In this document: positions 29,651-61,540 of the stretch, in pieces
Layout of the letters: each line of letters starts with the position of its first letter
How positions within the stretch are numbered: position 1 is the stretch's first letter
Assembly: GCA_038231135.1 (NCBI GenBank)
Contig: JBBRLX010000019.1
Location: 10,176-74,175, forward strand
DNA length: 64,000 nucleotides
Origin: Candidatus Eiseniibacteriota bacterium
GTDB taxonomy: Bacteria > Eisenbacteria > RBG-16-71-46
Direction of reading: 5' to 3'
The notes under the pieces: model-generated
Database searches by the model: none
Told to the model about the DNA's origin: nothing
What the model saw: the letters and a program-made list of their open reading frames with translations, nothing else
Translations under genes and position numbers: made by a program

Positions 29651-29727
29651 GTTCCTTCGTGAGGTTCGTACTGTCGGAGAAGCGGCGCCGTACACCGCCG
29701 TCGGAAGGATGCGCGTCCCGGCGCTCC

Positions 29728-29744
29728 TGAGGTAGTGTCTGCGC
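29728..29744 (+). promoter_or_regulatory. Leaderless promoter TG-AGG-TAGTGT-N6-ATG
   Basis: 29726-29739 is identical over 14 nt to 35747-35760. Confidence 0.7.
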
Positions 29745-30202
29745 ATGTCCCTCGCCGCCGGCACCCGACTCCGACGGGTCGGGAGAGGACTCACTGCTAT
29801 TCCGTGGGCCCGCGCTGTTCTCGTATCCGCTCAGCTGGTCGCGCGATGGCCGCTGGCTCGTGGCCCAGTGCTCGGATTCCACGGGAGCGTTCGACCTGTG
29901 GGTCATACCCATGGCCGGGCGGGGGCATCCGCGTCCCGCCCACGGTCTGTTGGTGGTCGGATCGCGGCGACGAGTTGCTGGTGGGCAATCAGAAGAACGA
30001 AGTGTTCTCGATTCCGGTTACGACCGGCTCCGCGATCCAACTCGACTCGCCGCGCCGGCTGTTCACGGTGACTCCGCCCTCGTTCCTGGTCGACATCGCC
30101 ACCGGCGAGCAGCGGTTCCTGACGGGGTCCTTCGATCCCCGATCCAGCCACTCCACGCTCGATGTCGTGCTGGGCTGGCCACGGCTGCTCGATAAGCAAT
30201 AG
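29745..30202 (+). pseudogene. Collapsed kinase/TolB-propeller gene (first 9 codons plus C-terminal ~120 aa)
   Basis: MSLAAGTRL, then propeller-end fragments RWLVAQCSDSTGAFDLWVIPM and WSDRGDELL...PRRLF...QRFL...LDVVLGWPRLL. Confidence 0.8.
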
Positions 30203-30342
30203 CGCCACGAGCCCGTCCGTTCACGGGGTCCGGCGTTTCCGTCCGCGCCTCCTACGGCGCGCCTGGTGCTCGTGTTCCGGACGACGGGTCACGCTTCCCC
30301 GACGCCCGGCAAGCCGTCCACAATCCAACAAGGAGACGTGCC

Positions 30343-31758
30343 ATGAACGTCAGAACGCAGGCTGGCAACGAGACGGTCCTCGACGCCACCAAGCTTCAGA
30401 GCTTCGAACGCGCGCTGCAGGGACGGGTCGTGCTGCCGGGCTCACCCGGCTACGACGAGGCCCGCACGATCTGGAATGCGATGATCGACCGCCGGCCGGC
30501 GCTCATCGCACGCTGCGCCCAGGCGGAGGATGTGGTTCACGCCGTCCGCTTCGCGCGCGACAACGATATCCTCGTCGCTGTGCGCGGCGGCGGCCACAAC
30601 ATCGCGGGCAACGCCGTCTGTGACGGCGGACTCATGATCGATCTCACGCCGATGAAGAGCGTCCGCATCGATGAACGGCAGCGGACGGCGCGCGTCGAAG
30701 CCGGAGCCACGCTCGGAGAGTTCGACGCGGCGGCCCAGGCGGTGGGCCTCGCGACCCCGCTCGGAATCAATTCCACGACCGGCGTGGCGGGCCTGACTCT
30801 CGGCGGCGGGTTCGGGTGGCTGAGCCGCAAGTACGGGCTGTCGATCGACAATCTCATCTCCGCGGACGTGGTCACCGCCGCCGGCACGATGCTGAAGGCG
30901 AGCGCGACCGACAATCCCGATCTGTTCTGGGCGATCCGCGGCGGTGGCGGCAATTTCGGCATCGTGACGGCGTTCGAGTTCAAATTGCACCCGGTGGGGC
31001 CGAACGTGCTGTCGGGGCTGGTCATCCATCCGCTCGACGCGGCCGGGGACGTGCTGCGGTTCTACCGCAAATTCATCGCCACCACCCCCGAGGAGTTCGT
31101 GTGCTGGCTCGTGCTCCGTCAGGCGCCGCCACTGCCGTTCCTGCCCGAGGAGTGGCACGGCAAGGGCATCCTCGCGCTCGCGATGTGTTACGCGGGCCCC
31201 ATTGAGGACGGCGAACGCGTGGCGAAGCCGCTGCGGGAGTTCGGCAAGTCGATCGCCGACGTCGTCGCGCCGCATCCGTTCGCGGCCTGGCAGGCGATCC
31301 TCGACCCGCTGCTCACGCCGGGCATGCGCAACTACTGGAAGTCGCACGATTTCACCGAGCTCACCGAGGGGCTGATCGACGTGCTCGTGGCGCACGCTCG
31401 CAAGATACCGGATCCGCAGACTGAGATCGCGTTCGCGCAGCTGGGCGGCGCCGTCAGCCGGGTCGCGAACGACGCGACCGCCTACACGCACCGCGACGCG
31501 CAGTTCGTGATGAACGTCCATGGGCGCTGGGACAACCCCGCGAACGACGCGAAGGTCATCGCCTGGGCACGCGAACTGTTCACGGCCGCCGCGCCGTTCG
31601 CGACCGGCGGGGCCTACGTGAACTTCATGACCCAGGACGAGACCGAGCGCGTCCGCGCCGCCTACGGCAGCAATTTCGATCGATTGGCACAGCTCAAGAA
31701 GCAGTACGACCCGACGAACCTGTTCCGCATGAACCAGAACATCCGGCCGGCGTCGTAA
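30343..31758 (+). CDS. FAD-binding oxidoreductase (berberine-bridge/6-hydroxy-D-nicotine oxidase family)
   Basis: AAGGAG RBS; VRGGGHN covalent-FAD motif; LFWAIRGGGGNFGIVT; KKQYDPTNLFRMNQNI. Confidence 0.95.
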   Translation: MNVRTQAGNETVLDATKLQSFERALQGRVVLPGSPGYDEARTIWNAMIDRRPALIARCAQAEDVVHAVRFARDNDILVAVRGGGHNIAGNAVCDGGLMIDLTPMKSVRIDERQRTARVEAGATLGEFDAAAQAVGLATPLGINSTTGVAGLTLGGGFGWLSRKYGLSIDNLISADVVTAAGTMLKASATDNPDLFWAIRGGGGNFGIVTAFEFKLHPVGPNVLSGLVIHPLDAAGDVLRFYRKFIATTPEEFVCWLVLRQAPPLPFLPEEWHGKGILALAMCYAGPIEDGERVAKPLREFGKSIADVVAPHPFAAWQAILDPLLTPGMRNYWKSHDFTELTEGLIDVLVAHARKIPDPQTEIAFAQLGGAVSRVANDATAYTHRDAQFVMNVHGRWDNPANDAKVIAWARELFTAAAPFATGGAYVNFMTQDETERVRAAYGSNFDRLAQLKKQYDPTNLFRMNQNIRPAS

Positions 31759-32004
31759 GACCGCCGGGAAGCTCACGCACCGGCAGGGGACGACAACGAG
31801 CGTTCCCGCCGGCGGGGGCTCTACTGCACAGGAGCGGGGTGGTGCGAGTGGTGCGCGTTCGGTAGTAGCCGCAACGCGAGGATTTTCACCCCGTCGCCGG
31901 TGCCGGCTACCAGCGATTCGAAGCTGGCGTTGACTCCGCCTCCCACCGACGCAGCCCGACCACGCGCGGCGGCCCGTGCGCGGTCGGGAGCTGCGTCGAA
32001 TCGG

Positions 32005-32595: not shown

Positions 32596-32857
32596 GAGAT
32601 CCTCCTGGTCGGAGTTGCATACCGGTTCGAGCGGGTCCCGCACCTGCATCCGCTCACGGCGGCATCGTATATCATTTCGGCGAGGTGGTGTCCCGCCGGC
32701 GACCGCGACCGGGTCCATCCCGCGAGGAGCTGCTGGAAGTCGTCCGGCAGCCACGGCGGCGGCTCGGACCGGCCAAGCTCGAACGAATGTGTAAGCGTCC
32801 GGCCGTGATACGCTGCCGTGGATCACATCGCATCCACTCCACTCCGCCGGGACCTCC

Positions 32858-35680
32858 ATGCGATTCGAGCCGGGCCTGAAGCTGGACCATTACCGCGTCG
32901 TCGAGAAGCTCGGCGAGGGCGGCATGGGAGAGGTGTGGCTCGCCGAGGACACCAGGCTCGGGCGGTCCGTGGCGCTCAAGCGGTTGCCGGCGGCGCTCGC
33001 GGCCGATCCGCAGCTGCTGGAGCGGTTTCAGCGCGAGGCCCGCACGCTCGCGGCGCTCAATCATCCGAACATCGTGACGATCCACGCGGTGGAGGAGTCG
33101 GGCGCGGGGCCGTTCCTGGCGATGGAGCTGGTGCGCGGGCATACGCTGTCGCACGAGATCCCGCCCGCGGGCCTGCCGCCGGCGCGCGTGCTCGAGCTGG
33201 CGATCACGATCGCCGGGGCCGTCGCCGCCGCCCACGAGCGTGGCATCGTCCATCGCGATCTCAAGCCCGACAACATCATGCTGAGCGACGATGGCCGGCT
33301 GCGCGTGCTCGATTTCGGACTCGCGAGGGCCCAACTCCTCGCGGCGCAGCCAGCGGGCGGACCCGATGCTCCCACCGTGGCGGTGTCCGCCGAACTCACG
33401 CGGCAGGGGACGATCCTCGGCACGGTGTCGTACATGTCGCCCGAGCAGGCGCAGGGCCGGCCGGCCGACGCCCGCTCGGATGTGTTCTCGCTCGGCATCA
33501 TCCTCTACGAGATGGCCTCGGGCCGCCGCCCGTTCACGGGCGGCGATCAGATGTCGATCCTCGCCGCGATCCTGCGCGACACCCCGCCGCCCTGCGACCG
33601 GTTGAACCCTGCCGTGCCCGCGCGGCTCGCGGCGGTGATCCACCGCTGCCTCGAGAAGGACGCGGCACTGCGCTACCCGACGGCCGCCGGCCTGCGCGAC
33701 GACCTCGTGGCGCTGCACGACTGGGCGCGAGGCGACGCCCTGACGAGCCTCACGCGCATCGTCGACCGGATCCAGGGACTCGAGGAAGGCCCGGAGGCGT
33801 GGGAAGCGTTCGTGCTGGCTCGCGAGATCGCGAAGCTGGTGCCGGACGACCCGCAGCTCCAGCGCCTGGCCCCGATGTTCGCCCGCGACATCGCGGTCAC
33901 GTCCGATCCCCCCGGGGCGAACGTGTCCGTTAAGTACTACGGCACGCCGGATGCCGACTGGACCGCGATGGGTGTCACACCGCTCGACACCGTGTCGTGG
34001 CCGAAAGGCTTCACGCGCATCCGGCTCGAGCACGACGGCGTCCGCAGTGCCGAGGACCTGATCTGGAACCACGACTACATCGGGACCGCGTGGCATTACG
34101 ATATGACGGCGCCGGACCAGGCGCCGCCCGAGATGGAGTGGGTCCCGGCCGGCAAGTTCGCTCTTCATATGCCGGGCCTCGACCATCTCGACGCCGAGCC
34201 GATGGCGGGCTTCTTCATGGACCGCGATCCGGTGACGAACGCCGAATACAAGCGCTTCGTCGACGCCGGCGGATATGCGGACCCAGCGTTCTGGCTCGAA
34301 CCGGTGGTCGCCGACGGTGGCGAGCTGGCGCGGCCCGAGGCCATGGCCCGGTTCGTCGACTCGACCGGACATGCCGGGCCCGCGGGGTGGGAGGTCGGAG
34401 ACCCTCCGCCCGGCGAGGCCGCGCTGCCGGTGTCGGGGGTCAGCTGGTACGAGGCCGCCGCGTACGCCGCCTGGGCCGGGAAGCGCCTGCCCACGGTGTT
34501 CCATTGGAATCGCGTGGCGTTCACCGTCGCCAGCGCACAGGTCATCGCGCAGGCGAATCTCGCCGCACGCGGACCGGTGGCGGTCGGCTCGACGCACAGC
34601 ATGAACCGCTACGGCGTGCGCGACCTCGCGGGCAACGTGCGCGAGTGGGCGTGGAACGCGACCTCGCGCGGGGACAAACGGTTCCTCCTGGGCGGCGGCT
34701 GGAACGACCCGGAGTATTCGTTCAACGACGCCTGGGCGCAGTCGGCGCTCGACCGCTCGCCGACCAACGGCTTCCGCTGCATCCGGATCCTCGAGCCCGA
34801 GACGAACCTCGAGCACCTGACGCAGGTGATCGACCTGCCGTTCCGCGATTTCCACGCCGAGACGCCGGTGCCGGATGCGGTGTTCGAGTTCTTCCTCCGC
34901 CAGTTTCGCTACGACGCGACGCCGCTCGCCGCGACGATCGAAGCCTCAGAGCCGAGCGTCCTCGGACGCTGGCAGACCGTGACGTTCGCCGCGGCCTACG
35001 GGACCGAGCGCATGAGCCTGTACCTGTTCCTGCCCGACAAGGGCCGGCCGCCGTACCAGACCATCGTGGTGGTCCCGGGCTCGAACGCGATCCACACCCG
35101 TACGTTCACGCCGCAGGACCTGCGCCGCATCGACTTCATCACGCGCAGCGGGCGCGCGATCGCGCTCCCCGTGTTCAAGGGCACGTATCACCGCGGCGGC
35201 GAGCTGCACTCGGACTACCCCGCGGAGACGGCGTCGTATCGCGATTACATGATCATGTGGGTCAAGGATCTCGCCCGTTCGATCGACTACCTCGAGACGC
35301 GCGACGACATCGACGCCGGCCACATCGGGTACTTCGGCCTGAGCTGGGGCGGCGCGCTGGGCGCGATCATGCCGGCGGTCGAGCGGCGGATCCGGGCCAA
35401 TGTGCTGTACGTCGCGGGGCTGTGCTTCCAGCACGCGCTGCCGGAGGTCGACGCGATCAATTACATCACGCGTGTCACGCAGCCGACGCTGATGCTCAAC
35501 GGCGAGTTCGATTTCTTCTTCCCGACCGAGACCTCGCAGCGGCCCATGTTCGAGTTGCTCGGCACGCCCGCCGAGCACAAGCGCCGTCTCACGTTCCCCG
35601 GCGGCCATTCGGTTCCGCGCACCGAGACGATCCGCGAGACGCTGGCCTGGCTGGATCGCTACCTCGGACCGGCCGCGTGA
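32858..35680 (+). CDS. Ser/Thr kinase fused to PEGA-like, FGE-sulfatase (SUMF1) and alpha/beta-hydrolase domains
   Basis: HRDLKPDN, DFG; SDPPGANV; PVTNAEYKRF, VSWYEAAAYA, DLAGNVREW, NGFRC; GLSWGG nucleophile, NGEFD, GGH. Confidence 0.93.
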   Translation: MRFEPGLKLDHYRVVEKLGEGGMGEVWLAEDTRLGRSVALKRLPAALAADPQLLERFQREARTLAALNHPNIVTIHAVEESGAGPFLAMELVRGHTLSHEIPPAGLPPARVLELAITIAGAVAAAHERGIVHRDLKPDNIMLSDDGRLRVLDFGLARAQLLAAQPAGGPDAPTVAVSAELTRQGTILGTVSYMSPEQAQGRPADARSDVFSLGIILYEMASGRRPFTGGDQMSILAAILRDTPPPCDRLNPAVPARLAAVIHRCLEKDAALRYPTAAGLRDDLVALHDWARGDALTSLTRIVDRIQGLEEGPEAWEAFVLAREIAKLVPDDPQLQRLAPMFARDIAVTSDPPGANVSVKYYGTPDADWTAMGVTPLDTVSWPKGFTRIRLEHDGVRSAEDLIWNHDYIGTAWHYDMTAPDQAPPEMEWVPAGKFALHMPGLDHLDAEPMAGFFMDRDPVTNAEYKRFVDAGGYADPAFWLEPVVADGGELARPEAMARFVDSTGHAGPAGWEVGDPPPGEAALPVSGVSWYEAAAYAAWAGKRLPTVFHWNRVAFTVASAQVIAQANLAARGPVAVGSTHSMNRYGVRDLAGNVREWAWNATSRGDKRFLLGGGWNDPEYSFNDAWAQSALDRSPTNGFRCIRILEPETNLEHLTQVIDLPFRDFHAETPVPDAVFEFFLRQFRYDATPLAATIEASEPSVLGRWQTVTFAAAYGTERMSLYLFLPDKGRPPYQTIVVVPGSNAIHTRTFTPQDLRRIDFITRSGRAIALPVFKGTYHRGGELHSDYPAETASYRDYMIMWVKDLARSIDYLETRDDIDAGHIGYFGLSWGGALGAIMPAVERRIRANVLYVAGLCFQHALPEVDAINYITRVTQPTLMLNGEFDFFFPTETSQRPMFELLGTPAEHKRRLTFPGGHSVPRTETIRETLAWLDRYLGPAA

Positions 35681-35765: not shown

Positions 35766-38456
35766 ATGCCACTGCCTGCCGGCACGAGACTGGGTCCCTA
35801 CGAGGTCGTCGCGCCGCTCGGCGCCGGCGGCATGGGGGAGGTGTACCGCGCACGCGACACGCGCCTCGGCCGCGACGTGGCGATCAAGGTGCTGCCGCAG
35901 GGCTTCGAGGCGGATCCCGATCGCATCGTGCGGTTCGAGCGTGAGGCGAAGCTGCTCGCCTCGCTCAATCATCCGAACGTCGCCGTGCTCTATGGCGTCG
36001 AGCATCTGGACGGCATGCTGTGCCTGGTGCTCGAGTTGATCGAGGGCGAATCGCTGGCGCAACGGCTCCAGCGCGGGCCGCTGCCGATGGACGAGGCGTT
36101 CGACGTAGCCGCGCAGGTGGCGGCCGCGCTCGAGGCCGCCCACGAAGCGGGCGTGGTGCATCGCGACTTGAAGCCCGGCAACGTGATGCTGCGGCCCGAC
36201 GGCGTGGCGAAGGTGCTCGACTTCGGCCTCGCGCGCGGCCCGCTGGGCGCCACGACGCCGGGCGTTCCTCCGTCGCTGAGCCAGTCGCCGACGATGACGA
36301 GCCCCGCGACGATGCCCGGCATGATCCTCGGCACGGCCGCCTACATGAGCCCCGAGCAGGCCAAGGGACGGGTCGCCGACCGGCGCGCCGACTTGTGGGC
36401 GTGGGGCTGCCTGCTCTACGAACTGCTCACCGGCCGGCGCGCGTTCCCGGGCGAGGACGTCTCCGAGACGCTCGCGTCGATCCTCAAGTCGGAGCCGGAT
36501 TGGGCTGCGCTGCCTCGCGATACACCGCTGCGCGTTCGCGAGCTGCTGGCCCGGTGCCTGCGCAAGGACGTGCGCGAGCGCCTCCGCGACGCGGGCGACG
36601 CACGCGTGCTGCTCACCGAGGCGCGCACGCACGTCGAGGCGCCGGCGACCTCCACGCCGGCTCGTGCCGGAGTGCCGTGGCTCGTCGCCCTGGGTCTGCT
36701 CGGGCTCGGCATCGCCGCGACGCTCGGCATCCTGCAGCTATGGGGACCGCACGACGGGTCCGCGCGCGCCGGCATCCTCCGGCTGCCGTTCCTGCCACCG
36801 GACAGCGTGAGCGTCGACGACCGCGCGAGCAACTTCGCGGTCATCTCACCCGACGGCAGGAATCTGTTGTTCGCGGGCCGCACACCGCATGGCGTGCGGC
36901 AACTGTGGCTGCGTCCGCTCGATTCCATGGTGGCGCAACCGCTGGCCGGCACGGACGGCGCGAACGAGCCGTTCTGGTCCCCGGATGGCCGCTCGATCGC
37001 GTTCGCCGCCGACGGCAAACTCAAGCGCCTCGATCTGTCGGGCGGGCAGCCCAAGGTGCTCGCCGACGCCGCGCGAATGTGCGGCGGGACGTGGAGTCGC
37101 TCGGGCGTCATCGTATTCAGCCCCGACTTCAGCAGCGTGCTCGATCGGGTGTCCGCGGACGGCGGCCCGACGACGCTCGTCGCGCGTCCCGATTCCACAC
37201 GCGGTGAGACCGGCTATCGCTCGCCGAGTTTCCTGCCCGATGGCCGCCACCTGCTCTACCGAGTGGACAACACCGGCGGCTACCCCAACTACGACTGGTT
37301 CGTCCGCCGTCTCGACGGCAACGACACGAAGCGGCTGATCCAGGGCTCCCCGGCCGCGCTGTACGCGCCGCCCGGCTGGCTGCTGTTCGCGCGCGGCGGT
37401 TCGATGTTCGCCCAGCGCTTCGATGCCGCCGCGCTGCGACTGTCGGGAGAACCGCTCCCCATCCAGATTGGCGCACCGATCGACCAGAACTTCACCAATG
37501 CGCGATTCTCGACGTCGCAGAATGGCGTGCTGGTGGCCCAGATCGAACCCGCGTACTCCTTTCAACTCACGTGGTACGACCGTGCCGGGAAGCGTCTCGG
37601 CCTGCTGGGCCCCGAAATGCAGGTTCACCTGGCTCAGTCGCCCTCGTTGTCGGCGGACCGCAGCCACGTCGTGTTCCAGCGCCAGGATCCGCAGACCGGT
37701 ATCGGCGACATCTGGACGATCGACGTCGCACGGGGAACGCTGAACCGGCTCACGAGCGACCCCACGCTCGATCAGTTGCCCCTGTGGGCGGTCGACGGTC
37801 GATCGGTGTTCGAGAACACCCGCCGCAACGGCGTCGCAGGCATCTACCGCATCTCCGCGAACGGCGGCGACGAGCGATTCATGGCGAAGGGCGGCTGGCC
37901 CACCGCAACGACTCCCGATGGCCGGTTCCTGATCTTCATGAAGCGCGGCGAGAAGACGCGCCAGGACATCTGGCTGCTGCCGCTCACGGGCGGCGGCCCG
38001 GCGCGCGTGGTACTGGCCACCGAATTCAACGACTCGCAACCGCAGATCTCGCCCGACGGCCACTGGCTGGCCTATGCCTCCGACGAGACCGGCAGCTACG
38101 AGGTCTACGCGCGGCCGTTTTCGCCCGAGACCGGGGTCGGCGACCCGGTGCGCATCTCGACGGGCGGCGGATTCGCACCGCGCTGGCGCGGTGACGGCCG
38201 CGAGTTGTTCTACGTCTCGGCGCCGATCAGCGCCGCAGACGGACGGCTGATGGCGACGAGCATCAAGGTCGACGGCGCGAGGCTCGAGCCGGGCACGCCG
38301 ATTCCGCTGTTCGCGACCCACATGATGCCGGACGGATTCACGCCGGAATTCGACGTGTCGGCGGACGGGCAGCGGTTCCTGGTCGGAACCGCGACCCGCG
38401 ACCCACATGCGACTGGAGTGAACCTGCTGCTCAACTGGACGGAGTTACTCCGATGA
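35766..38456 (+). CDS. Transmembrane Ser/Thr kinase with TolB-like (PD40) beta-propellers
   Basis: Full kinase motifs; TM VPWLVALGLLGLGIAATLGIL; PFWSPDG and ISPDG repeats. Confidence 0.94.
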   Translation: MPLPAGTRLGPYEVVAPLGAGGMGEVYRARDTRLGRDVAIKVLPQGFEADPDRIVRFEREAKLLASLNHPNVAVLYGVEHLDGMLCLVLELIEGESLAQRLQRGPLPMDEAFDVAAQVAAALEAAHEAGVVHRDLKPGNVMLRPDGVAKVLDFGLARGPLGATTPGVPPSLSQSPTMTSPATMPGMILGTAAYMSPEQAKGRVADRRADLWAWGCLLYELLTGRRAFPGEDVSETLASILKSEPDWAALPRDTPLRVRELLARCLRKDVRERLRDAGDARVLLTEARTHVEAPATSTPARAGVPWLVALGLLGLGIAATLGILQLWGPHDGSARAGILRLPFLPPDSVSVDDRASNFAVISPDGRNLLFAGRTPHGVRQLWLRPLDSMVAQPLAGTDGANEPFWSPDGRSIAFAADGKLKRLDLSGGQPKVLADAARMCGGTWSRSGVIVFSPDFSSVLDRVSADGGPTTLVARPDSTRGETGYRSPSFLPDGRHLLYRVDNTGGYPNYDWFVRRLDGNDTKRLIQGSPAALYAPPGWLLFARGGSMFAQRFDAAALRLSGEPLPIQIGAPIDQNFTNARFSTSQNGVLVAQIEPAYSFQLTWYDRAGKRLGLLGPEMQVHLAQSPSLSADRSHVVFQRQDPQTGIGDIWTIDVARGTLNRLTSDPTLDQLPLWAVDGRSVFENTRRNGVAGIYRISANGGDERFMAKGGWPTATTPDGRFLIFMKRGEKTRQDIWLLPLTGGGPARVVLATEFNDSQPQISPDGHWLAYASDETGSYEVYARPFSPETGVGDPVRISTGGGFAPRWRGDGRELFYVSAPISAADGRLMATSIKVDGARLEPGTPIPLFATHMMPDGFTPEFDVSADGQRFLVGTATRDPHATGVNLLLNWTELLR

Positions 38457-41125
38457 CCCTCACGCCCGGCACCCGGCTCGGCCCCTACGAGATCGTCGCG
38501 CCGCTCGGCGCCGGCGGTATGGGCGAGGTCTATCGCGCTCGCGACACCCGACTCGACCGTAGCGTGGCGATCAAGGTGCTGCCCGCCCACCTCTCGCTGT
38601 CGCCGGAGGTGCGCGCGCGGTTCGAGCGCGAGGCGCGCACCATCTCGAGCCTGAATCATCCGAACATCTGCACGCTGTTCGATGTCGGCAGCGAGGGCGA
38701 CGCGGATTACCTCGTGATGGAACTGGTCGAAGGCGAAACCCTGGCCACGCGTCTCGAGAAGGCCCCGCTGCCGCCGGACGAGGGCATCCGGATCGGGATG
38801 CAGATCGCCGACGCGCTCGATCGCGCGCACCGCGCCGGAATCGTGCACCGCGATCTCAAGCCCGGGAACATCATGCTCACGAAGACCGGCGCGAAGCTCA
38901 TGGACTTCGGCCTCGCGCGCGCCACGGGCATGACGGGCCCCGCAACCGGCTCGGGCGTCACCCTCGCCGCCCTCACGCATTCGCCGACCGTCGCCCAGCC
39001 GCTCACCGCCGAGGGCACGCTGGTGGGCACGTTCCTCTATATGTCGCCGGAACAACTCGAGGGCAAAGAGGCCGACGCGCGCAGCGACATCTGGGCGCTG
39101 GGCTGCGTGCTGTACGAAATGGCGACCGGACGCCGCGCGTTCGGCGGCAGGAGCCAGGCCTCGCTGATCACGTCCATCATGGCCACCGAACCCGCACCGA
39201 TCGCTCAGGTCGCGCCCATGAGTCCGCCGGGGCTCGACCGGCTGGTGCGCGCGTGCCTCGCCAAGGATCCAGAAGAACGCATTCAGACCGCCCACGATGC
39301 GAAGCTGCAGCTGCAATGGATCGCAGAGGGTGGATCGCAGGCCGGCGTGCCCGCGCCGGTCGCGGTGAAGCGCCGCCATCGTGAATCGACCGCCTGGGTG
39401 CTGTTCGCGCTCGCCGCGGTCACCGCCGCGGCGCTGGGCGCGCTTCAGCTCGTTCCCAGACCGCGTCCGAACCCCGTGATCTTCGAGCTCACGCCTCCCC
39501 GGCAGGTGGGCGCCGTGGACCTGCCTCGCATCTCGCCCGACGGACGGTTGCTCGCGTTCAACGCCATCGATTCCAGCGGCACCACCGGCATCTGGGTGCG
39601 CCCCATGAATTCGCTCGACGCCCAGCGTCTGCAGGGCACCGAGGGTTCGACGCGGCCATTCTGGTCTCCCGACAGCCGCTACCTCGCATTCTTCTCGGGA
39701 GGCAAGCTGAACAAGATCGACATCACCGGCGGGCCACCGCAGGTCGTCTGCGATGCGCCGCGCGGCGCCGACGGCTCGTGGGGAACCCGCGGTGTCATCC
39801 TGTTCGACGGCAGTGGCACGGACACCGTCCAGCGGGTCTCGGCCGGCGGCGGTGCCCCCTCCGGCGCTACCACTCTGAACCGGACGACACGGGAGACGTT
39901 CAACGCCTGGCCGCAATTCCTGCCCGATGGACAGCACTTTCTCTACCTGGGTTCCAGCGGCCTCGGCGAGGCCACGCTCAAGATCGGGCGCCTCGATTCG
40001 AAGGATGTGAAGGTGCTCGGTCCGGCCGGTTCCCGCACCGAATACGCGTCCGGACACTTGATGTTCGTCCGTCAGGGCACGTTGTTCGCGCGGCCGTTCG
40101 ATCCCGGCGCGCTCAAGTTCACGGGTGATCCGTATCCGATCGCCGAGGGTGTCGAGTTCAATGCCATGGGGAGCGCGCGGTTCTCGGCCTCCTCACAGGG
40201 CACGCTGGTCTACCGGGCGGGAGGGGGGAACGCGAATCGGAGTCTGGTATGGGTGGATCGAACCGGGCGTCCGATCGGCACCGTGGGCAGCCCGGGTTTG
40301 TACGACGATCCAGCGCTTTCGCCCGACGGCACCCAGCTGGCGGTGAAGGTGACCGCCTCCGGCCACACGAACGGAGACATCTGGATCTGGGATCTCGCGC
40401 GCGATCTCGGCTCGCGGTTCAGCTTCGCCAGCGCGGACGTCAATTACCCCACGTGGTCCCCGGATGGCACGAAACTGGTGTACTCGGTGGCGCGCGAAGG
40501 CGGCACCGACCTCCACATCAAGCCGCTGGGCGGCTCGGGCGCCGACTCCGTGCTGTTCTCGACGAACGAGGAGAAGTATCCGTACTGCTGGTCATCGAAC
40601 GGACGCTACATCGCGTTCATCGAGCGGTCCGGTATTCAAAATCGAAGCTGGGACATCGAAGCGCTCTCGCTGACCGGACCGCCGCAGGTGATCTCCGTCG
40701 CGGCCACACCGTCCATCGAAGTCGGGCCCGCGTTTTCTCCGGACGGAACATGGATCGCGTACAAGTCACTGGAGTCCGGGCAACCTGACGTGTACGTGCA
40801 GGCATTTCCGGGGCCGGGCGGAAAGTGGCGCGTTTCCACTCACGGAGGCACCGAACCTCTGTGGCGCGGCGACGGACACGAACTGTTCTATCTCACGCTC
40901 TCGCGAGAATTGATGTCGGTCGTGTTCGACGCCGGTCCGCCGCCGCATCTCGGGCTTCCGCAAAAGCTGTTCGACGCACCCGTGATTCGCGGGAACAATG
41001 TTCGGAGCCGATACGTTCCTTCCCGCGATGGCCAGCGGTTCCTGCTGAACACCATCGAAGGCGAGGCCAAGATCGGCGCCACGACCGTCGTGCTCGACTG
41101 GCTCGGCGATCGGCACAAGCCGTGA
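38453..41125 (+). CDS. Transmembrane Ser/Thr kinase with TolB-like (PD40) beta-propellers
   Basis: ATGA overlap with the previous kinase; HRDLKPGN, DFG, SPE; TM AWVLFALAAVTAAALGAL; SPDG repeats. Confidence 0.94.
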   Translation: MTLTPGTRLGPYEIVAPLGAGGMGEVYRARDTRLDRSVAIKVLPAHLSLSPEVRARFEREARTISSLNHPNICTLFDVGSEGDADYLVMELVEGETLATRLEKAPLPPDEGIRIGMQIADALDRAHRAGIVHRDLKPGNIMLTKTGAKLMDFGLARATGMTGPATGSGVTLAALTHSPTVAQPLTAEGTLVGTFLYMSPEQLEGKEADARSDIWALGCVLYEMATGRRAFGGRSQASLITSIMATEPAPIAQVAPMSPPGLDRLVRACLAKDPEERIQTAHDAKLQLQWIAEGGSQAGVPAPVAVKRRHRESTAWVLFALAAVTAAALGALQLVPRPRPNPVIFELTPPRQVGAVDLPRISPDGRLLAFNAIDSSGTTGIWVRPMNSLDAQRLQGTEGSTRPFWSPDSRYLAFFSGGKLNKIDITGGPPQVVCDAPRGADGSWGTRGVILFDGSGTDTVQRVSAGGGAPSGATTLNRTTRETFNAWPQFLPDGQHFLYLGSSGLGEATLKIGRLDSKDVKVLGPAGSRTEYASGHLMFVRQGTLFARPFDPGALKFTGDPYPIAEGVEFNAMGSARFSASSQGTLVYRAGGGNANRSLVWVDRTGRPIGTVGSPGLYDDPALSPDGTQLAVKVTASGHTNGDIWIWDLARDLGSRFSFASADVNYPTWSPDGTKLVYSVAREGGTDLHIKPLGGSGADSVLFSTNEEKYPYCWSSNGRYIAFIERSGIQNRSWDIEALSLTGPPQVISVAATPSIEVGPAFSPDGTWIAYKSLESGQPDVYVQAFPGPGGKWRVSTHGGTEPLWRGDGHELFYLTLSRELMSVVFDAGPPPHLGLPQKLFDAPVIRGNNVRSRYVPSRDGQRFLLNTIEGEAKIGATTVVLDWLGDRHKP

Positions 41126-48524: not shown

Positions 48525-48665
48525 CTGGCGCGTTGCCGTCGTGGGTGTCCGGACGCCATAGTCGGGTATAGTCCGCGCCGTCGTGTCACTTGCCCCCGCC
48601 ACAGCCCTGCCCTTGCGAGACCGCCGTCGCGCCGGGCCGGGCGGCCCGCCAGCGCCGGAGTGCCC

Positions 48666-50141: not shown

Positions 50142-50271
50142 CGGGATGCGGTAGATTCATCGGATGCATCCGACTTCCGGCACTCGCCTCGGCGCCTGTA
50201 TGATCGGCGCCGTATCGGGCGGCGAACTGCGTGCAGCGCGCCCGTTCGAGGACATTGACCCATGGCGGTGA
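50142..50271 (+). pseudogene. Kinase promoter plus 5' stub (MHPTSGTRLGACMIGAVSGGELRAAR...)
   Basis: TG-CGG-TAGATT-N6-ATG(50164); 50142-50193 matches 51561-51612 at 42/52 nt. Confidence 0.8.
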
Positions 50272-51176: not shown

Positions 51177-51183
51177 GTCAGGC

Positions 51184-51501
51184 ATGAGCGAAACGCCTCG
51201 CACCGCGCTGCAGGTCGTGTTCACCGAGGTTTACCTGCCGGCCGAAACACGCTTGTCGCGGGAGGCGCTCGCGGCCGCGGCCGGCATCAGCGAGGAGAGT
51301 CTCGCGAGCCTCGTGCGACTGGGCCTGGTGGAGCCGGCCGCCCCGGAAGCCGCCGAATTCACTGTCGCGGCGGCCACGCGCCTGCGCCGGATGCTTCGAC
51401 TCCATCGCGACCTCGGTGTCGATCTCGAGGCCGGCGCGATCATCGTCGATCTGCTGGAACGACTCGAGCGCCTCGAGCACGACATGGCTCGCCTGCGCTG
51501 A
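51184..51501 (+). CDS. cbpM: Chaperone modulator CbpM (MerR-like)
   Basis: LVRLGLVEP...RLRRMLRLHRDLGVDLEAGAIIVDLLERLERLE; directly after cbpA. Confidence 0.85.
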   Translation: MSETPRTALQVVFTEVYLPAETRLSREALAAAAGISEESLASLVRLGLVEPAAPEAAEFTVAAATRLRRMLRLHRDLGVDLEAGAIIVDLLERLERLEHDMARLR

Positions 51502-51582: not shown

Positions 51583-53862
51583 ATGCCCCTGAATTCCGGC
51601 ACGAGACTCGGCATCTACGAGATCATCGCCCCCCTCGGCGCCGGAGGCATGGGCGAGGTGTATCGCGCGAAAGACACGCGCCTGCGCCGGGAGGTGGCGG
51701 TGAAGGTGCTCCCCGCGAGCGTCGCATCGAACCCCGATTTCCTGGCCCGGTTCGAGCGCGAGGCGAGAACGGTGGCGGGACTCAATCACCCGAACATCGT
51801 CACCCTCTATTCCGTCGAAGATGACGGCGGCATTCGCTTCCTCACGATGGAACTGGTCGAGGGCCGGACCCTCGACCAGCAGATCACAGCGGAGGGGTTG
51901 CCGTTGGCGTCCGTCCTCGGCCTCGCGATTCCGCTGGCGGACGCACTGGTGGCGGCGCATGGCCGCGGGGTCGTGCATCGCGATCTGAAACCCACGAACG
52001 TGATGGTGACCCGCGAGGGCCGGGTAAAGGTGCTGGACTTCGGACTGGCAAAGGTGTCGCCGCCCGCGTCCATGATCGAGGCGACGCAGGCGTCGACGAT
52101 GACCTCCCCGATGTCGGCAGCGGGGGAGATGCTGGGGACGTTGCCCTACATGGCCCCGGAGCAGATCCGCGGCGAAGCGGCGGACGCGCGCACCGATCTG
52201 TTCGCGTTCGGCATCCTGTTGTACGAACTGGTTACCGGCCGCCGGCCGTTCCAGGGCGCGAGCCCCGCCGACGTGATCTCCTCGATCCTGCGCGACGCGC
52301 CGCCGTCGATACCGTCGCTTCGCGATGACCCGCCACAAGACGTCGCGCGGATCATCGGCCGGTGTCTCGAGAAGGACCCGGAGCGCCGGCTGCAGACGGC
52401 GAAAGACCTGCGGAACGAGCTGGAGATCGTCCAGCGCAGGCTGGAGGTACGCGCGTCGCAAGCGCCTCCGTTCGTGGCTTCGGCGAAGGACGCCGCCTCG
52501 ATCGCGGTGCTGCCGTTCGCGAACCTCGGACGCGACAAAGACGACGACTACTTCGCCGACGGCATCACGGAGGACGTGATCGCGCAACTTTGCAAGGTGC
52601 GCACGCTCAAGGTGATCTCCCGCACGTCCGTGATGCCGTTCAAGAAGCGCGACGAAAGCATCCAGGAGATCGCATCGAAGCTTCAGGTGGGGAACGTGCT
52701 CGAAGGCAGCGTCCGACGGATCGGCGATCGCGTGCGGATCGTGGCGCAGCTCATCGACGCCGAATCGGGCAGGCATCTCTGGGCCGAGACCTACGACCGG
52801 CAGCTCACGGATGTGTTCGCGATTCAGACGGACGTAGCGCTCCACATCTCGGCCGCGCTCAAGGCGGAACTGTCACCGGATGAACGAGAGCGCATGCACC
52901 GCGAGCCCACCCGCGACGTGCAGGCCTACGAGCTATACCTGCGCGGGCGGCAGCACCTCATCCATTACACCCGCGAGGACATGCTGCGCAGCATCGAGTA
53001 TTTCGAGCGCGCCATCGGGCTGGATCCCGGGTTCGCCCTGGCCTACGTGGGCCTCGCCATCGCATACACGGAGATGGAGGAGACCAGCGAGATGAGCCGC
53101 GCCGAGGCCGGCGGCCGGGCCACCGAGGCGGCGGCCAGCGCGGTGGCGCTCGACCCAGAGCTCGGGGATGCGCACTGCGCACGGGGGTACGCCCGGTTGT
53201 ACTACGAGTACGACTGGGAGGGCGCGGAGGCGGACTTCAAGCGGGCCATCGAACTGAGCCCCAGCAGTGCCTACAGCTACGATCTCTATGGACGCATGTG
53301 CGCCGCGCTCGGGAGATTCGATGAGGCGATCGCGCTGCATGAACGCGCCTTCGAACTGGACCCGCTCTCCAACCTCGCGGACATCGCCACATCGCTGCTC
53401 CGTGCAGGGCGTAACGAGGAGGCCGCCCAGCGAGTCGGGCTCTCGATCAAGCTCGAACCCGGATTCCCGCGGCTTCACGCGACCCTCGGGTGGGCTCTGT
53501 TCAGGATGGGGCGAACGGCCGAAGGGCTCGCCGAGTTACAGCAGGCGGTCGTGCTCTCGCAGACCGGAGACATGTGGCTGTCACAGCTTGGCCAGGCCTG
53601 CGCCATGGCGGGCATGCCTGATCGGGCCCGGGAGATCCTACAGAAGTTGCTGGACCCGTCGCGACCTGCGCCCGCCTCGCCCTATGTGGTGGCGTACGTC
53701 TACACGGGCCTCGGCGACACGGAACGCGCGATGGATTGCCTCGAGCGCGCGTTCGACGCCGGCAACGGCGCGCTGTTTGCCATCAAGGGCTCGTTTCTCC
53801 TGGCGCCGCTTCGCGACCATCCCCGGTTCGCGGCCCTCCTCGCGAGAATGCGCCTGACCTGA
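51583..53862 (+). CDS. Ser/Thr protein kinase with TolB-N-like and TPR domains
   Basis: HRDLKPTN, DFG, YMAPE; SIAVLPFANL, EGSVRRIGDRVRI; TPRs; ends PLRDHPRFAALLARM. Confidence 0.94.
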   Translation: MPLNSGTRLGIYEIIAPLGAGGMGEVYRAKDTRLRREVAVKVLPASVASNPDFLARFEREARTVAGLNHPNIVTLYSVEDDGGIRFLTMELVEGRTLDQQITAEGLPLASVLGLAIPLADALVAAHGRGVVHRDLKPTNVMVTREGRVKVLDFGLAKVSPPASMIEATQASTMTSPMSAAGEMLGTLPYMAPEQIRGEAADARTDLFAFGILLYELVTGRRPFQGASPADVISSILRDAPPSIPSLRDDPPQDVARIIGRCLEKDPERRLQTAKDLRNELEIVQRRLEVRASQAPPFVASAKDAASIAVLPFANLGRDKDDDYFADGITEDVIAQLCKVRTLKVISRTSVMPFKKRDESIQEIASKLQVGNVLEGSVRRIGDRVRIVAQLIDAESGRHLWAETYDRQLTDVFAIQTDVALHISAALKAELSPDERERMHREPTRDVQAYELYLRGRQHLIHYTREDMLRSIEYFERAIGLDPGFALAYVGLAIAYTEMEETSEMSRAEAGGRATEAAASAVALDPELGDAHCARGYARLYYEYDWEGAEADFKRAIELSPSSAYSYDLYGRMCAALGRFDEAIALHERAFELDPLSNLADIATSLLRAGRNEEAAQRVGLSIKLEPGFPRLHATLGWALFRMGRTAEGLAELQQAVVLSQTGDMWLSQLGQACAMAGMPDRAREILQKLLDPSRPAPASPYVVAYVYTGLGDTERAMDCLERAFDAGNGALFAIKGSFLLAPLRDHPRFAALLARMRLT

Positions 53863-53886: not shown

Positions 53887-54015
53887 GTGCCCCAGACTGG
53901 CACGAGCTGCGTTCCAACCGAACGTTGCCACTCCATGGACGACGGACTATCGTCCGCCTGCGACTTCTCGCGTCGCGGTGGTCCCTGGCCGTTTCACCAC
54001 CTGGTCACGATCATG
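53887..54015 (+). pseudogene. Possible heavily eroded kinase N-lobe remnant
   Basis: Ordered fragments: gtg ccc cag act ggc acg ag ctg (MP..GT(R)L), ccg aac gtt gcc ac..cat gga (PNVAT.HG), acg gac tat c gtc (TDY.V), GGPWP (cf. GPLP). Confidence 0.45.
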
Positions 54016-54021
54016 AGCTGC

Positions 54022-54535
54022 AACGGGTCGACCCGTCAGAGCGCGATCGAGTTCTGGCAGGGACTCCTCGGCATGCGGTTCCTGTTCGAGCAGCCGAATC
54101 TCGGCCCGCCCCGAAGAGAATCATCTGTACTTCGATCCCGGTGACGGCCGGCTCGTCACCGTGTTCACCAACGAGGAGCGCACGGACGACCCCAGTCCCC
54201 ATCCGCGCGGGGTCGGACACCTCGAGCACATCGCGTTCACCGTCTCGCGAGCGACGCAGACGCAGGTGGCGGAGCGTCTCGAGGCGCGGGGGATCCCGTT
54301 CAAGTCGCACGACCGTGGATTCATGGATTCCATCTACTTCAGCGACCCCAACGGTCTCCGCCTGGAACTGGCCTGTTACAAGTTCCACGCGCCCGACGGC
54401 GTGCGCGAGGCGGACGTCCTGCGAGCTGCCGATGCGTTCAGGCGCGAGGCGGGCGACCACCACATCACCGACCGGCACGTCCTGGCCGCCGTGTCGACGC
54501 GAATGCCCTTCGGGGACGCCGGGCGGCATACATGA
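54022..54535 (+). pseudogene. VOC/glyoxalase family gene, 5'-truncated and frameshifted at ~54106
   Basis: RQSAIEFWQGLLGMRFLFEQPNLG in one frame; NHLYFDPGDGRLVTVFTNEER...HDRGFMDSIYFSDPNGLRLELACYKF in the next. Confidence 0.8.
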
Positions 54536-54551: not shown

Positions 54552-54627
54552 CGTGGTAGACTTCTGCATGCCAATGACTTCCGTCTGTCACCGGGGTTCT
54601 CGCTGTTTCGGCGCAAGGAGGATTTGA
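54552..54627 (+). pseudogene. Degenerate kinase promoter plus 5' stub serving as leader of the cupin-SDR operon
   Basis: TGG-TAGACT-N5-ATG(54568); 19-aa ORF MPMTSVCHRGSRCFGARRI aligns to MPLTSGSRLGP...LGAGGM by mostly single-nt changes. Confidence 0.55.
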
Positions 54628-54629
54628 CG

Positions 54630-54995
54630 ATGAGCACGACGACGCACGTCCGCTGGGATGACCAGCCGCGTGAACGACTCGGACCGTTATTGGAGCGCCG
54701 CTACGTGACCGGCCGGCACCTGACGCAGGCCCAATTCTTCCTGGCCAGAGGTTGCGTCGTTCCCACGCATGAGCACGACAGCGAACAGTTCGCCAACGTG
54801 GTCAAGGGCTGTCTGCGTTTCCGGCTGGGCGCGGACGGCAAGGATGTCATCGACGTCGCCGCCGGAGAGGCGCTGCTCATTCCCTCGCGGCTACCGCATT
54901 CGGCCGAAGCCCTCGAAGATTCGGTCGTGTTCGATTCCTTCGGCCCAATCCGCGAGGACTGGCTCGCGCAACGCGACGATTACCTCAGGCGCTGA
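54630..54995 (+). CDS. Cupin domain protein
   Basis: AAGGAGG RBS; VPTHEHDSEQ, IPSRLPHSAEALED, PIREDWL. Confidence 0.9.
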   Translation: MSTTTHVRWDDQPRERLGPLLERRYVTGRHLTQAQFFLARGCVVPTHEHDSEQFANVVKGCLRFRLGADGKDVIDVAAGEALLIPSRLPHSAEALEDSVVFDSFGPIREDWLAQRDDYLRR

Positions 54996-54997
54996 GC

Positions 54998-55789
54998 ATG
55001 GACACCGGACTGCCGGGCAAGGTCGTACTGGTGGCGGCCGCGAGCAAGGGACTCGGCCGGGCGGTCGCCGAGGCGTTCGCGGCCGAGGGCGCCTCGCTCG
55101 CGATCTGTGCACGCGGCGCGGACAGTCTCGCGAACGCGCGCGACGCGCTCATGCGCATCACGCAGGCTCCGGTGCATGTGGTCGTCGCCGATCTGTCGCG
55201 TGCGGAGGGCATCGCGCAGGTCGTGAGTTCGACGCTCGAGCGCTTTGGCCATGTCGACGTGCTGGTCACGAACGCCGGCGGCCCACCCGTGGGATCGTTC
55301 GAAACGCTCGATTGGGACGCGTGGCAACGCGCGACGGAACTGACGTTGCGCAGTGCCGTCGAGCTCACGCGCGGGGTGCTGCCCGGAATGCGTGAGCGAC
55401 TCTGGGGGCGTGTCCTCCACGTCACCTCGCTCGCGGTCAAACAACCGATCGACGGTCTCATGCTCTCGACGTCGATCCGCGCCGCCGTCACCGGATTCTC
55501 GCGAACGCTCGCCAACGAAGTCGCCGCCGCCGGCATCACCGTCAACACCATCCTGCCGGGGTTCATGAACACGGAGCGCGTCGCCGAGCTCAATCAGGCG
55601 ACTGCGGCTCGCGAAGGCGTGACCGCGGACGTGGTCGAGCGCCGGTTTCGCGAGCAGATCCCCATGCGACGCATCGGGGAGCCGCGGGAGTTCGCGGCCC
55701 TGGCGGTGTTTCTCGCGTCGGAGCAGGCGTCGTACATCACGGGGCAGTCGATTGCGGTGGATGGGGGATGGATTCGCGGATTGCTGTGA
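54998..55789 (+). CDS. SDR family oxidoreductase (FabG-like)
   Basis: AASKGLG, VTNAGGPP, SEQASYITGQSIAVDGG. Confidence 0.92.
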   Translation: MDTGLPGKVVLVAAASKGLGRAVAEAFAAEGASLAICARGADSLANARDALMRITQAPVHVVVADLSRAEGIAQVVSSTLERFGHVDVLVTNAGGPPVGSFETLDWDAWQRATELTLRSAVELTRGVLPGMRERLWGRVLHVTSLAVKQPIDGLMLSTSIRAAVTGFSRTLANEVAAAGITVNTILPGFMNTERVAELNQATAAREGVTADVVERRFREQIPMRRIGEPREFAALAVFLASEQASYITGQSIAVDGGWIRGLL

Positions 55790-58071: not shown

Positions 58072-58218
58072 CCCCGGAGGATAGTCGGGCTCTGCCAATC
58101 CCCCAACTGAACTACGCTGTCGGCAGACCGGCTACTGTGCAAGGTCCTCCGTCATTCGCTCACGGGCTGAGATCGTCGTCGTCCCGCCAGCCACGGTTCC
58201 ATCCGAGGAGGTGCGTTC

Positions 58219-58372: not shown

Positions 58373-58566
58373 GCAGATCATGGGATCGTTCGCAGCGATC
58401 GATTCCGCGTGGAGCGGCCGCCAGCTGTCGCCGCGAGCGCGACCGGGTGGCGGAGACGCTCGATCGCAGAGCGCTTGGACGGTGGTCAGGGCATTGCCTA
58501 TGCTGGCGCGCTCGGAAACCCAGTTCCTGTCCGTGCCTTGCCGGCGCGGTCAATGGAGGAGACGTG

Positions 58567-59898: not shown

Positions 59899-59910
59899 GA
59901 ACGCACTTCG

Positions 59911-60309
59911 ATGCCACTGACCCGGCACACGCCTCGGCCCCTACGAAATCCTCGCGCCGCTCGGCGCTGGCGGAATGGGGGAGGTCTACCGGGCACGAGA
60001 CTCTCGACTCGGCCGCGACGTTGCGGTCAAGGTTCTGCCGGCGCACCTGCGGGAGCAACCTGAGGTTCGCGCGCGATTCGAGCGCGAGGCTCGTACGGCT
60101 TCCGCACTGAACCATCCGCACATCTGCGTGCTCCACGACGTCGGCAACGATGGGCGATCGACTATCTCGTCATGGAGCTTGTCGATGGCGAGTCTCTCGC
60201 GGAGCGCATCGGCCACGGCCCGCTGTTGCCAGCCGAGGTGATGAGGATCGGCGCACAAATCGCCCACGCGCTCGACCGCGCGCATCAGGCCGGCGTGGTA
60301 CGCTCCTGA
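59911..60309 (+). pseudogene. Ser/Thr kinase pseudogene (two frameshifts, truncated before HRD)
   Basis: atg cca ctg a|ccc ggc aca cgc ctc (frameshift); [17 protein letters not shown]...[16 protein letters not shown]...AHQAGVV, then an abrupt end. Confidence 0.9.
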
Positions 60310-60326
60310 GCCGACGACGCGAACGG

Positions 60327-61163
60327 TCAGGCCGGCTCGGAATGTGGGGGAGGAGCTTTCAGTCGTCGCAGCCTCTTGATCGCATAGAAGACCCCGAACG
60401 AGGTCATCCCGATCACAACACAAGCAAGCAGGAAGGCTCGATCGATACCGACCTCTGAGATTGGGCGCTCGGTAAAGTCTCCCGCGATCCCAGTCCACCA
60501 ATAGGCGAACATCCCGATGTCCATCAGGACATGGCCGACAATGCTTGGGATCAGGGAGCCCGAAGACCAGGCGAGGAGTCCAAGCAGCACTCCGGCTCCG
60601 AATATGACGGGAATCATCGCTGGTACCGCCCAGGCCTTGCTGAGATGGAACGCCGTGAACACGAGCGCGGAGAGCAGAATCGCGATCAGCGGGCCGTGCC
60701 GCTCTTCGAGTGGTTGCTGCATGTACCCGCGGAATCCTGTCTCTTCGCAGACTCCAGCGGACATCGCCGAGATCACCACGGCGAGCCATCTGAGCGCCAC
60801 AGAGGGAATGAAGGACAGATCGTAGCCGCGGCGAAATGCTGCGATCGGAAACGACTGCAAGCGAAACAGGATAACGATCGAGGCATGGACCGTCACCGCG
60901 AAGCTGAGCGCACCGAACAGGCCCCATGTCCATTGTTCGGGCGAGAGGGTCGCGGCGCGGGAGACGGATCGACGCGCCACTCGTGTTGAACGCGGCGGCC
61001 CCGCACCATTCGTCCACCAGACATAGAACACCAGAAAGAGGATCTCGGCTGCCGAAGCCAGTGGAGTGCCCAGGCTCACGAGAAGGATCGGCCACACATT
61101 CGCGGCGACCAGCGCAACCAGACTGCCGGCAACGACTGCACGCACCCATACCGGCGGTTTCAC
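60327..61163 (-). CDS. CPBP/Abi (CAAX) family intramembrane metalloprotease
   Basis: EETGFRGY, FTAFH and HVLMD motifs; multi-TM. Start uncertain (GTG 61163). Confidence 0.88.
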   Translation of the reverse strand: MKPPVWVRAVVAGSLVALVAANVWPILLVSLGTPLASAAEILFLVFYVWWTNGAGPPRSTRVARRSVSRAATLSPEQWTWGLFGALSFAVTVHASIVILFRLQSFPIAAFRRGYDLSFIPSVALRWLAVVISAMSAGVCEETGFRGYMQQPLEERHGPLIAILLSALVFTAFHLSKAWAVPAMIPVIFGAGVLLGLLAWSSGSLIPSIVGHVLMDIGMFAYWWTGIAGDFTERPISEVGIDRAFLLACVVIGMTSFGVFYAIKRLRRLKAPPPHSEPA

Positions 61164-61498
61164 AGCCTGGCCCAACCCAGCCAGAACCCCCTCGCTGTCA
61201 TCGCCAGAGCCCCCACAAAACGAGACGCCCCCCGGCACCCAACCTCCGCATCACCAACTGCCGGAGCCAGAGGATAATCCTCATTCTTTTGGTGTCCAGG
61301 GGCAGGTGCTCGAGACGGCGGGACCGGACGCCGAGGCCTCCGTCGAACGGGCGCGTGAGGGTCTGGTCGCCACCCGGATCCCGCGCGGGACCGTGGTGCT
61401 GCCGGGGTCCGGCCGCCCGCCTGCCGCCCGTGGCGCGCCTCCTGCCCCGCCCCCGCGATTCGCGAGCGCCAAGACACGCGGCGTGGTGGTCCACTCCG

Positions 61499-61540
61499 TG
61501 GGGTACATTCACCCGATGCCACTCGCCCCCGGCGCGAAGC
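61499..61540 (+). pseudogene. Kinase promoter plus 5' stub (MPLAPGAK)
   Basis: TG-GGG-TACATT-N6-ATG(61516) ccactcgcccccggcgcgaag. Confidence 0.7.

Follow-up and report, generated by a model that had tools for sequence, protein, structure and literature searches.

Remnants of serine/threonine kinase genes ahead of accessory genes in an Eisenbacteria genome: probable gene decay with promoter capture

Contig C19 (JBBRLX010000019.1) of a Candidatus Eiseniibacteriota bacterium (GCA_038231135.1) ends with a stretch of 64,000 nucleotides (nt; positions 10,176 to 74,175), hereafter the window, in which short copies of a kinase promoter and its first codons have been described upstream of unrelated genes. 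This arrangement raises the question whether genes land at kinase 5′ ends or whether kinases have vanished from in front of their neighbours. A sequence-only reading of the window had listed six such stubs (29745, 48583, 50164, 53887, 54568 and 61516) and favored the first possibility; all six strings are present there on the + strand. However, four of them are remains of an expanded Ser/Thr kinase family and were probably hollowed out in place by deletions; the next gene would inherit the promoter as a by-product. The likely process is common decay of genes in which a neighbour captures the promoter, and not a system devoted to capturing genes.

Kinase remnants and probable deletion in place

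The stubs were scored with a weight matrix that covers the promoter and ten codons and was trained on 42 kinase starts from 40 loci of relatives only. As references we used all 8.18 million positions of the genome, simulated intergenic DNA of matched guanine-cytosine (GC) content (10 million positions) and, in a gapped test, 599 real upstream control regions. Stubs 29745, 50164 and 61516 reached 37.4, 34.3 and 28.0 bits and ranks 3, 5 and 7 in the genome, among the intact kinases, compared to a maximum of 13.6 bits in simulated intergenic DNA. A genome-wide scan with a nucleotide hidden Markov model (nhmmer) recovered the same three stubs (E values of 7.5e-4, 1.7e-4 and 0.049, respectively). 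Stub 48583, previously ranked as weaker, was indeed weak without gaps (7.7 bits, 0.03 expected in the interval) but scored above all 599 control regions in the gapped test, with kinase likeness to about codon 22. Stub 54568, previously counted among the main copies, was borderline without gaps (rank 46 among real genome positions at 8.5 bits, with 0.02 such scores expected in the interval) and failed the gapped test, in which 38% of the controls scored as high. It may simply be the promoter of the cupin gene behind it, and what speaks for a kinase origin comes from the nine cupin orthologue loci examined, such as that of genome G086. Stub 53887 was rejected because it remained at background throughout (48 expected ungapped; 55% of controls as high in the gapped test). 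On these scores, 29745, 48583, 50164 and 61516 are identified as true leftovers of kinase genes.

Chance resemblance or mis-assembly at repeated kinase starts is an extremely improbable explanation of these four, which score far beyond the nulls. Chance accounts for 53887 and possibly for 54568, and some frameshifted kinases in relatives with few contigs may be sequencing errors. Contigs from two runs match pieces of 44100-64000 with zero differences across 48583, 50164, 54568, 59911 and 61516, and therefore bridge five junctions that are no assembly artefacts; as both runs may be source samples of this DNA, the check excludes assembly error and nothing further, and 29745 lies outside it. For 29745, chance is refuted by the matrix score together with its own kinase C-terminus. 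Joints with sides of 21-36 nt in the run data were assigned to kinases of other organisms. A further genome candidate, C2:48286 (-), combines a strong -10 box with a weak kinase-start look-alike, has a stop at codon 2, lies between divergent genes (by eye) and reaches an nhmmer E value of 0.85; it is probably due to chance.

Stub 29745 had been listed as a short copy of the promoter and first codons ahead of an unrelated gene, but it is not a bare stub. Directly after its start, two pieces match residues 701-749 (57%, E = 3e-14) and 789-890 (42%, E = 2e-17) of an 890-aa kinase of a relative and continue for about 430 nt to the kinase's own stop at 30202, 140 nt ahead of the oxidase gene. Losses of ~2 kb and ~0.1 kb (~2.1 kb in total) separate these pieces from a complete gene, and the alignment characterizes 29745 as a hollowed-out kinase with both gene ends kept. 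Same-genus sister genomes provide a second case: G016 encodes an intact 751-aa kinase and G019 a 178-aa relic with the same next gene and the same 4-nt overlap. The flanks share 94-95% identity, and G019 has lost ~1.6 kb and ~0.14 kb at microhomologies of 5-8 nt. Since the downstream gene already stood behind the intact kinase in this pair, the neighbour came first and the deletion second; since it already overlapped that kinase, it would have retained a promoter rather than gained one. In a second sister pair, the same stub, which lacks a promoter of its own, is ~30 codons long in G019 and 8 codons long in G016, and a separate -10-like box precedes the downstream gene in either genome. Kinase 5′ ends therefore survive even without donating anything. 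Loss of the gene body in place is visible for 29745 and the G016/G019 pair, not for 48583, 50164 and 61516.

The following course of events could account for the stubs. The starting material would be the kinase matches, 8-55 per genome in all 21 genomes searched (21/21), which are clustered in accessory islands. In many of these kinases a -10 box lies at a distance of 6-10 nt from the start codon, presumably as a leaderless promoter, so that promoter and start would form one 25-nt unit. Deletions of kilobase size at short microhomologies, as seen in one sister pair and 29745 and presumed for the others, would then remove the gene body and leave variable lengths of both ends, of which the conserved 5′ end would be recognisable longest. 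A deletion that spares the start would also spare the promoter, so that a downstream same-strand gene would remain on the kinase transcript or join it, in some cases with fusion to, or translational coupling with, the residual open reading frame (ORF). End-joining repair is a plausible source of the deletions, as a Ku gene is present in the source genome, and no dedicated recombinase or fixed site would be required.

Relics in relatives and alternative origins

Relics in relatives of the order, whose kinase starts are on average 71% identical, were found with a model of kinase starts built from sequence only and with short protein queries. The loci comprise 125 kinase starts: 77 belong to intact genes, 12 to frameshifted genes of full length, 13 to genes that run into a locus end, and 23 were called relics; four of these relic calls were false on inspection (L015, L125, L130, L140; also L141, the sister of L140), leaving 19. 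As the loci had been picked for kinase matches, these counts are not rates. The starts form a continuum from intact via frameshifted to short relics with variable breakpoints; read by eye, ~25 relics retain 8 to 131 codons without a preferred breakpoint. 3′ ends are kept according to BLAST in 29745, L123 and L257 and by resemblance only in L131, L225 and L256. The previously described pattern thus recurs in relatives, including in-frame fusion of kinase and following gene: two chimeras join the kinase promoter and 22-26 codons to a DUF2306 membrane protein gene and an MNT-HepT nucleotidyltransferase gene (L124:3436-4215 (-) and L128:4345-4878 (-)). A diverged, open, kinase-like leader of 40 codons in G012 (L254:3614-3736 (+)) shares an ATGA overlap with an FHA-domain-like gene (by eye) and may be an old retained leader peptide.

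Several observations weigh against deletion in place as the origin of all four stubs. In the G019 relic, the middle piece shares only ~79% identity with the kinase of the sister genome, a hint of recombination between paralogues. In five genomes (248 rows), seven truncated kinase domains retain the 5′ end and none lacks it away from contig ends, every unpaired kinase match without a 5′ end being located at a contig end. Gene geometry and detection can yield such a bias, given a domain at the 5′ end, 1.5-2 kb of dispensable sequence behind it and weak conservation of 3′ ends; geometry may account for all or part of the asymmetry. Moreover, none of 33 orthologue loci of cbpA, the FAD oxidase and the M20 gene (11 each, flanks of ~1.5 kb) has a stub upstream. 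A kinase lies within 1.5 kb in 3/33 and upstream on the same strand in 1/33, and this single case (FAD oxidase, G068) belongs to another subfamily than the relic and is not orthologous. These loci do not reveal the parent state of three window sites, and conserved kinase-before-cargo synteny was not found in them for the three genes. In favor of deletion in place, the cupin-SDR genes of G086 lie 57 nt behind an intact leaderless kinase; of the nine cupin loci, that of G088 has a collapsed kinase at a distance of 1.3 kb upstream, and that of G050 a kinase in divergent orientation. A last point against it is that 50164 is nearest to the adjacent kinase K6 among 142 starts (68 versus 60), a best match in the own genome that is found for 0/7 intact own kinases. 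Its sequence also fits a local duplication or a homology-driven insertion.

An insertion at the kinase 5′ end could be brought about in two ways. A site-specific recombinase of integron or island type might act on a fixed core in the kinase 5′ end. The genome contains 15 tyrosine-recombinase matches, and relic neighbours in relatives include cassette-like genes (a toxin-antitoxin pair, a TIR protein, a methylase and an IS630-type transposase). However, none of the 15 matches is on C19, the best match to the integron integrase model TIGR02249 in this 93% complete genome reaches 74 bits compared to a cut-off of 265, the window contains no tRNA, and no attC-like repeat family occurs among its 20 largest repeat families, for which no attC covariance model was run. 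A fixed crossover position with a duplicated core was not found, and the scatter of breakpoints over codons 8-131 largely refutes this explanation, which we consider very improbable. Together with the relics that keep both ends and the same-genus pair with the neighbour already in place, the scatter also speaks against the earlier proposal of an att-like insertion site.

Alternatively, the kinase 5′ end could serve as a homology handle, an incoming kinase start with its cargo entering a resident start by a single crossover and producing the order stub, cargo, kinase. Stub 50164, cbpA, cbpM and K6 have this layout and K6 is the best match of the stub, 29745 ties with K3 as its best match, kinase starts are similar across the order (71% on average) and the cargo is patchily distributed. 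Still, tandem duplication followed by deletion yields the same layout at 50164, and most cargo has no intact kinase right behind it. Further points against such crossovers are the relics that retain their own C-terminus or face a gene on the opposite strand, and the sister pairs in which the neighbour had been in place beforehand. We regard this route as unlikely for the stubs as a group, and decay in place as their probable origin.

Promoter layout and hints of selection

A -10 box very close to the start codon is the layout of leaderless promoters. TANNNT was found 6-9 nt ahead of the start codon in 23/42 kinase starts of relatives, and many of these kinases would accordingly carry a putative leaderless promoter. 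Stubs 48583, 50164 and 61516 have a -10 box 6-10 nt ahead of the start codon and a short ORF that abuts the next gene. The stub box is the top-scoring promoter-like site between each of the four confirmed stubs and its cargo according to a matrix trained on kinase promoters, and the promoter of 50164 reaches 18.3 bits, among the highest values, despite its decayed codons. The earlier statement that the promoter is kept while the coding part decays thus agrees with our data. A generic sigma-70 scan (-35 plus -10) detected none of the stub promoters, and terminator counts were at shuffle level. Many cargo orthologues carry a -10 box of their own; M20 orthologues mostly have one beside the start, unlike the M20 gene of the window.

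Deletion-made stubs ahead of useful genes could additionally be kept by selection as portable expression modules consisting of promoter, leaderless start and a short ORF that passes ribosomes on to the cargo. This would supplement decay in place and is possible, if tentative. Relative to the cargo start, the stub ORFs terminate at +4 (48583), +10 (50164) and +16 (61516) and that of the doubtful 54568 at -2, with a chance of 0.11-0.15 per case in a window (-5..+16) that was chosen after seeing the data. Among 15 relics of relatives with a same-strand neighbour, seven are fused or coupled to it, two of them via the native kinase 3′ end, a share that does not stand out clearly from the 25-30% roughly expected; start-stop overlaps occur in L129, L254 and L256. 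Relics ahead of same-strand neighbours have better promoter scores (median 6.2, n = 15) than those ahead of opposite-strand neighbours (-4.7, n = 4; p = 0.014) in a hand-curated comparison that omitted L169 (score 8.1, opposite-strand neighbour), L290 and L302, whereas intact kinases show no such difference (57 versus 16, p = 0.57). Same-strand orientation itself is not enriched (relics 15/19, intact kinases 57/73). The in-frame fusions in relatives, the strong promoter of 50164 and the missing box of the window's M20 gene are in line with selection, but the esterase that follows 61516 has an internal deletion of its own.

The decayed peptide of 48583, LAPATALP, is present in two genomes of different families (window 48583-48640 and L169:1116-1170 in G014) with 6/8 third positions changed and zero amino-acid changes. 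These six silent changes are suggestive of selection, but the G014 copy, which retains the -10 box, has no same-strand gene behind it. A conserved micro-peptide family was dismissed, as two exact matches and one with a single mismatch in 102 genomes are opposed by four reversed-control matches, and a metagenome scan returned none. Overall, these sequence patterns could be hints of selection on the stubs, not proof. A wider interpretation, in which the leaderless kinase family is a renewable stock of 25-nt promoter-plus-start modules whose turnover recruits accessory genes into one shared regulon, while selection keeps fused or coupled stub ORFs and thereby makes new leader peptides and N-termini across Eisenbacteria, is rather doubtful.

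The island, its parallels and significance

The window (GC content 67.7%, ending with the contig at position 64000) is a Ser/Thr-kinase-rich accessory island in the 4.09-Mb genome of a sediment bacterium; its cbpA-like gene has its best relatives in Ca. Eisenbacteria. Pfam Ser/Thr kinases are encoded on the + strand from 24 kb onward (24335, 32858, 35766, 38453, 45866 in two frames, and 51583), with TPR, PD40 or FGE-sulfatase C-termini and small accessory genes between them (Table 1); repeats in the window reflect kinase paralogy. The distances from 29745, 48583, 50164, 54568 and 61516 to the next gene are 598, 83, 98, 62 and 116 nt. The coding density of the island is 0.79 compared to a median of 0.89 (98 tiles; 8th lowest), and the broken kinase K7 had been missed by the sequence-only reading. 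Non-kinase genes decay as well, among them a frameshifted VOC gene, aminotransferase fragments and the esterase, which is ~50 residues short relative to the three homologues found (28-29% identical). Damage to two of the cargo genes, VOC and LpqC, had likewise been missed by the sequence-only reading; the GNAT gene at ~45294 is not frameshifted. Across 102 genomes the cargo is patchy (cbpA-like in 14, M20 in 21, cupin in 19, esterase in 4).

Table 1. Kinase genes, kinase relics and neighbouring genes in the window
Feature	Position	Strand	Evidence
K1, intact Ser/Thr kinase (Pkinase + TPR), without leaderless -10 box	24335..26716	+	Pfam, start matrix
Relic 1, 5′ part: -10 box 29733-29738, ATG 29745, 9 kinase codons	29733..29771	+	matrix, nhmmer
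Relic 1, 3′ part: two beta-propeller (PD40) C-terminus pieces of the same kinase and stop codon	29773..30202	+	match to relative kinase
FAD-linked oxidase (FAD_binding_4 + BBE), behind relic 1	30343..31758	+	
K2, intact kinase (FGE-sulfatase + hydrolase C-terminus), other N-terminus type	32858..35680	+	
Intact tandem kinases of PD40 type: K3 with leaderless -10 box, K4 overlapping K3 by 4 nt	35766..41125	+	
K5, kinase, PD40 type, two reading frames (frameshift)	45866..48524	+	
Relic 2: -10 box 48567-48572, GTG 48583, decayed kinase codons to ~codon 22; ORF stop in ATGA overlap with next gene	48567..48669	+	
M20 amidohydrolase (hydantoinase/carbamoylase family)	48666..49904	+	
Relic 3: near-consensus extended -10 box (hexamer 50152-50157), ATG 50164, decayed codons to ~codon 25; 35-aa ORF with stop 10 nt inside cbpA; K6 nearest kinase start	50152..50271	+	matrix, nhmmer, repeat D16 (74% over 70 nt)
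cbpA-like DnaJ gene and cbpM-like gene	50262..51501	+	
K6, intact kinase (TPR type), leaderless -10 box	51583..53862	+	
Claimed stub 53887 (unsupported) and frameshifted VOC gene relic	53887..54535	+	
Doubtful relic: -10 box 54557-54562, ATG 54568, 19-codon ORF with stop 2 nt ahead of cupin start	54557..54628	+	
Cupin and SDR genes	54630..55789	+	
K7, broken kinase: codons 1-131, two frameshifts, truncated ahead of opposite-strand CAAX protease gene	59911..60310	+	
Relic 4: -10 box 61504-61509, ATG 61516, ~8 kinase codons; 43-aa ORF with stop 16 nt inside esterase gene	61504..61647	+	
LpqC/PHB-depolymerase-like esterase, internally ~50 residues shorter than homologues	61632..62627	+	

Upstream of the kinases, window 2633-23411 encodes very large secreted proteins (1292, 3628, 613 and 1565 aa) with FG-GAP, fn3, laminin G, Ig-like and FlgD-type C-terminal domains. 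A gene at 32005-32600 (-) has a 12-nt periodic Lys/Ala-rich N-terminal repeat (repeat family D6) followed by a VOC-like part, without a Pfam match. The aminotransferase class V fragments at 55830-56307 are apparently deletion-joined to a tail that resembles the C-terminus of an FlgD-domain protein (by eye), and a similar 15-nt intergenic motif occurs at 58137-58155 and 62518-62540. In near-complete relatives, kinases are likewise clustered in islands of ~100 kb with small, patchily distributed accessory genes. Such islands with 8-10 same-strand kinase starts among accessory genes are represented by L231-L238 (G086, 3.33-3.45 Mb) and L239-L244 (G045), and counterparts of the window's cupin-SDR, FAD oxidase and GNAT genes are present in islands of this type. 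Head-to-tail arrays of 6-10 kinase genes with ~2.7-kb spacing were observed in G029:C78, G030:C6 and G039:C7.

Integron cassette arrays and tRNA-anchored islands contain patchy, small and mostly co-oriented accessory genes behind shared promoter-like elements. The window resembles them in its patchy small accessory genes behind shared promoter-like elements, but differs from them by having no IntI above the cut-off, no attC-like family among its 20 largest repeats, no tRNA and a mixed gene orientation. In promoter-capture deletions, dispensable intervening DNA is lost and a gene is placed under an upstream promoter, the orientation and dispensability of the neighbours being important (PMC5526668). 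Likewise, the confirmed stubs keep a promoter-like element ahead of a gene on the same strand, and no better-scoring site lies in the interval. However, those deletions arose under laboratory selection at single E. coli loci (PMC5526668), whereas the present cases are natural, recur many times in one paralogous family and concern a putative leaderless promoter and start packed into ~25 nt. Bacterial pseudogenes exhibit a deletion bias, microhomologies at junctions (171/396 deletions) and a tendency to in-frame sizes (PMC6054270). The short microhomologies at our junctions agree with this, but the deletions described there are mostly small and from reduced symbiont genomes, compared to kilobase deletions in the accessory islands of a 4-Mb sediment genome. 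As in SpyCI at the 5′ end of mutL (PMC3430984), the 5′ end of a gene is the landmark and a relic promoter would sustain downstream genes; unlike SpyCI, which uses an integrase and one identical attachment site, the stubs have no nearby integrase and no fixed breakpoint. As with mycobacterial leaderless short ORFs that head operons (10.1101/834739), the predicted transcript starts directly with the initiation codon of a short ORF ahead of a functional gene, but those ORFs are conserved sensory attenuators and the stubs heterogeneous kinase remnants. The literature searched, which did not extend to subscription journals, yielded no account of Eisenbacteria with kinase islands or relics of this kind.

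If only decay is at work, the stubs would provide a clear natural series of bacterial gene death, with neighbours retaining the promoter, in a lineage with kinase islands of largely leaderless layout. The relics offer dozens of independent replicates, and selection on them could be tested by comparative genomics alone. If selection does keep the stubs, horizontally patchy genes would have a way to acquire the promoter and start codon of the host with no mobile element involved, and the stubs would also be an origin of leader peptides and gene fusions.

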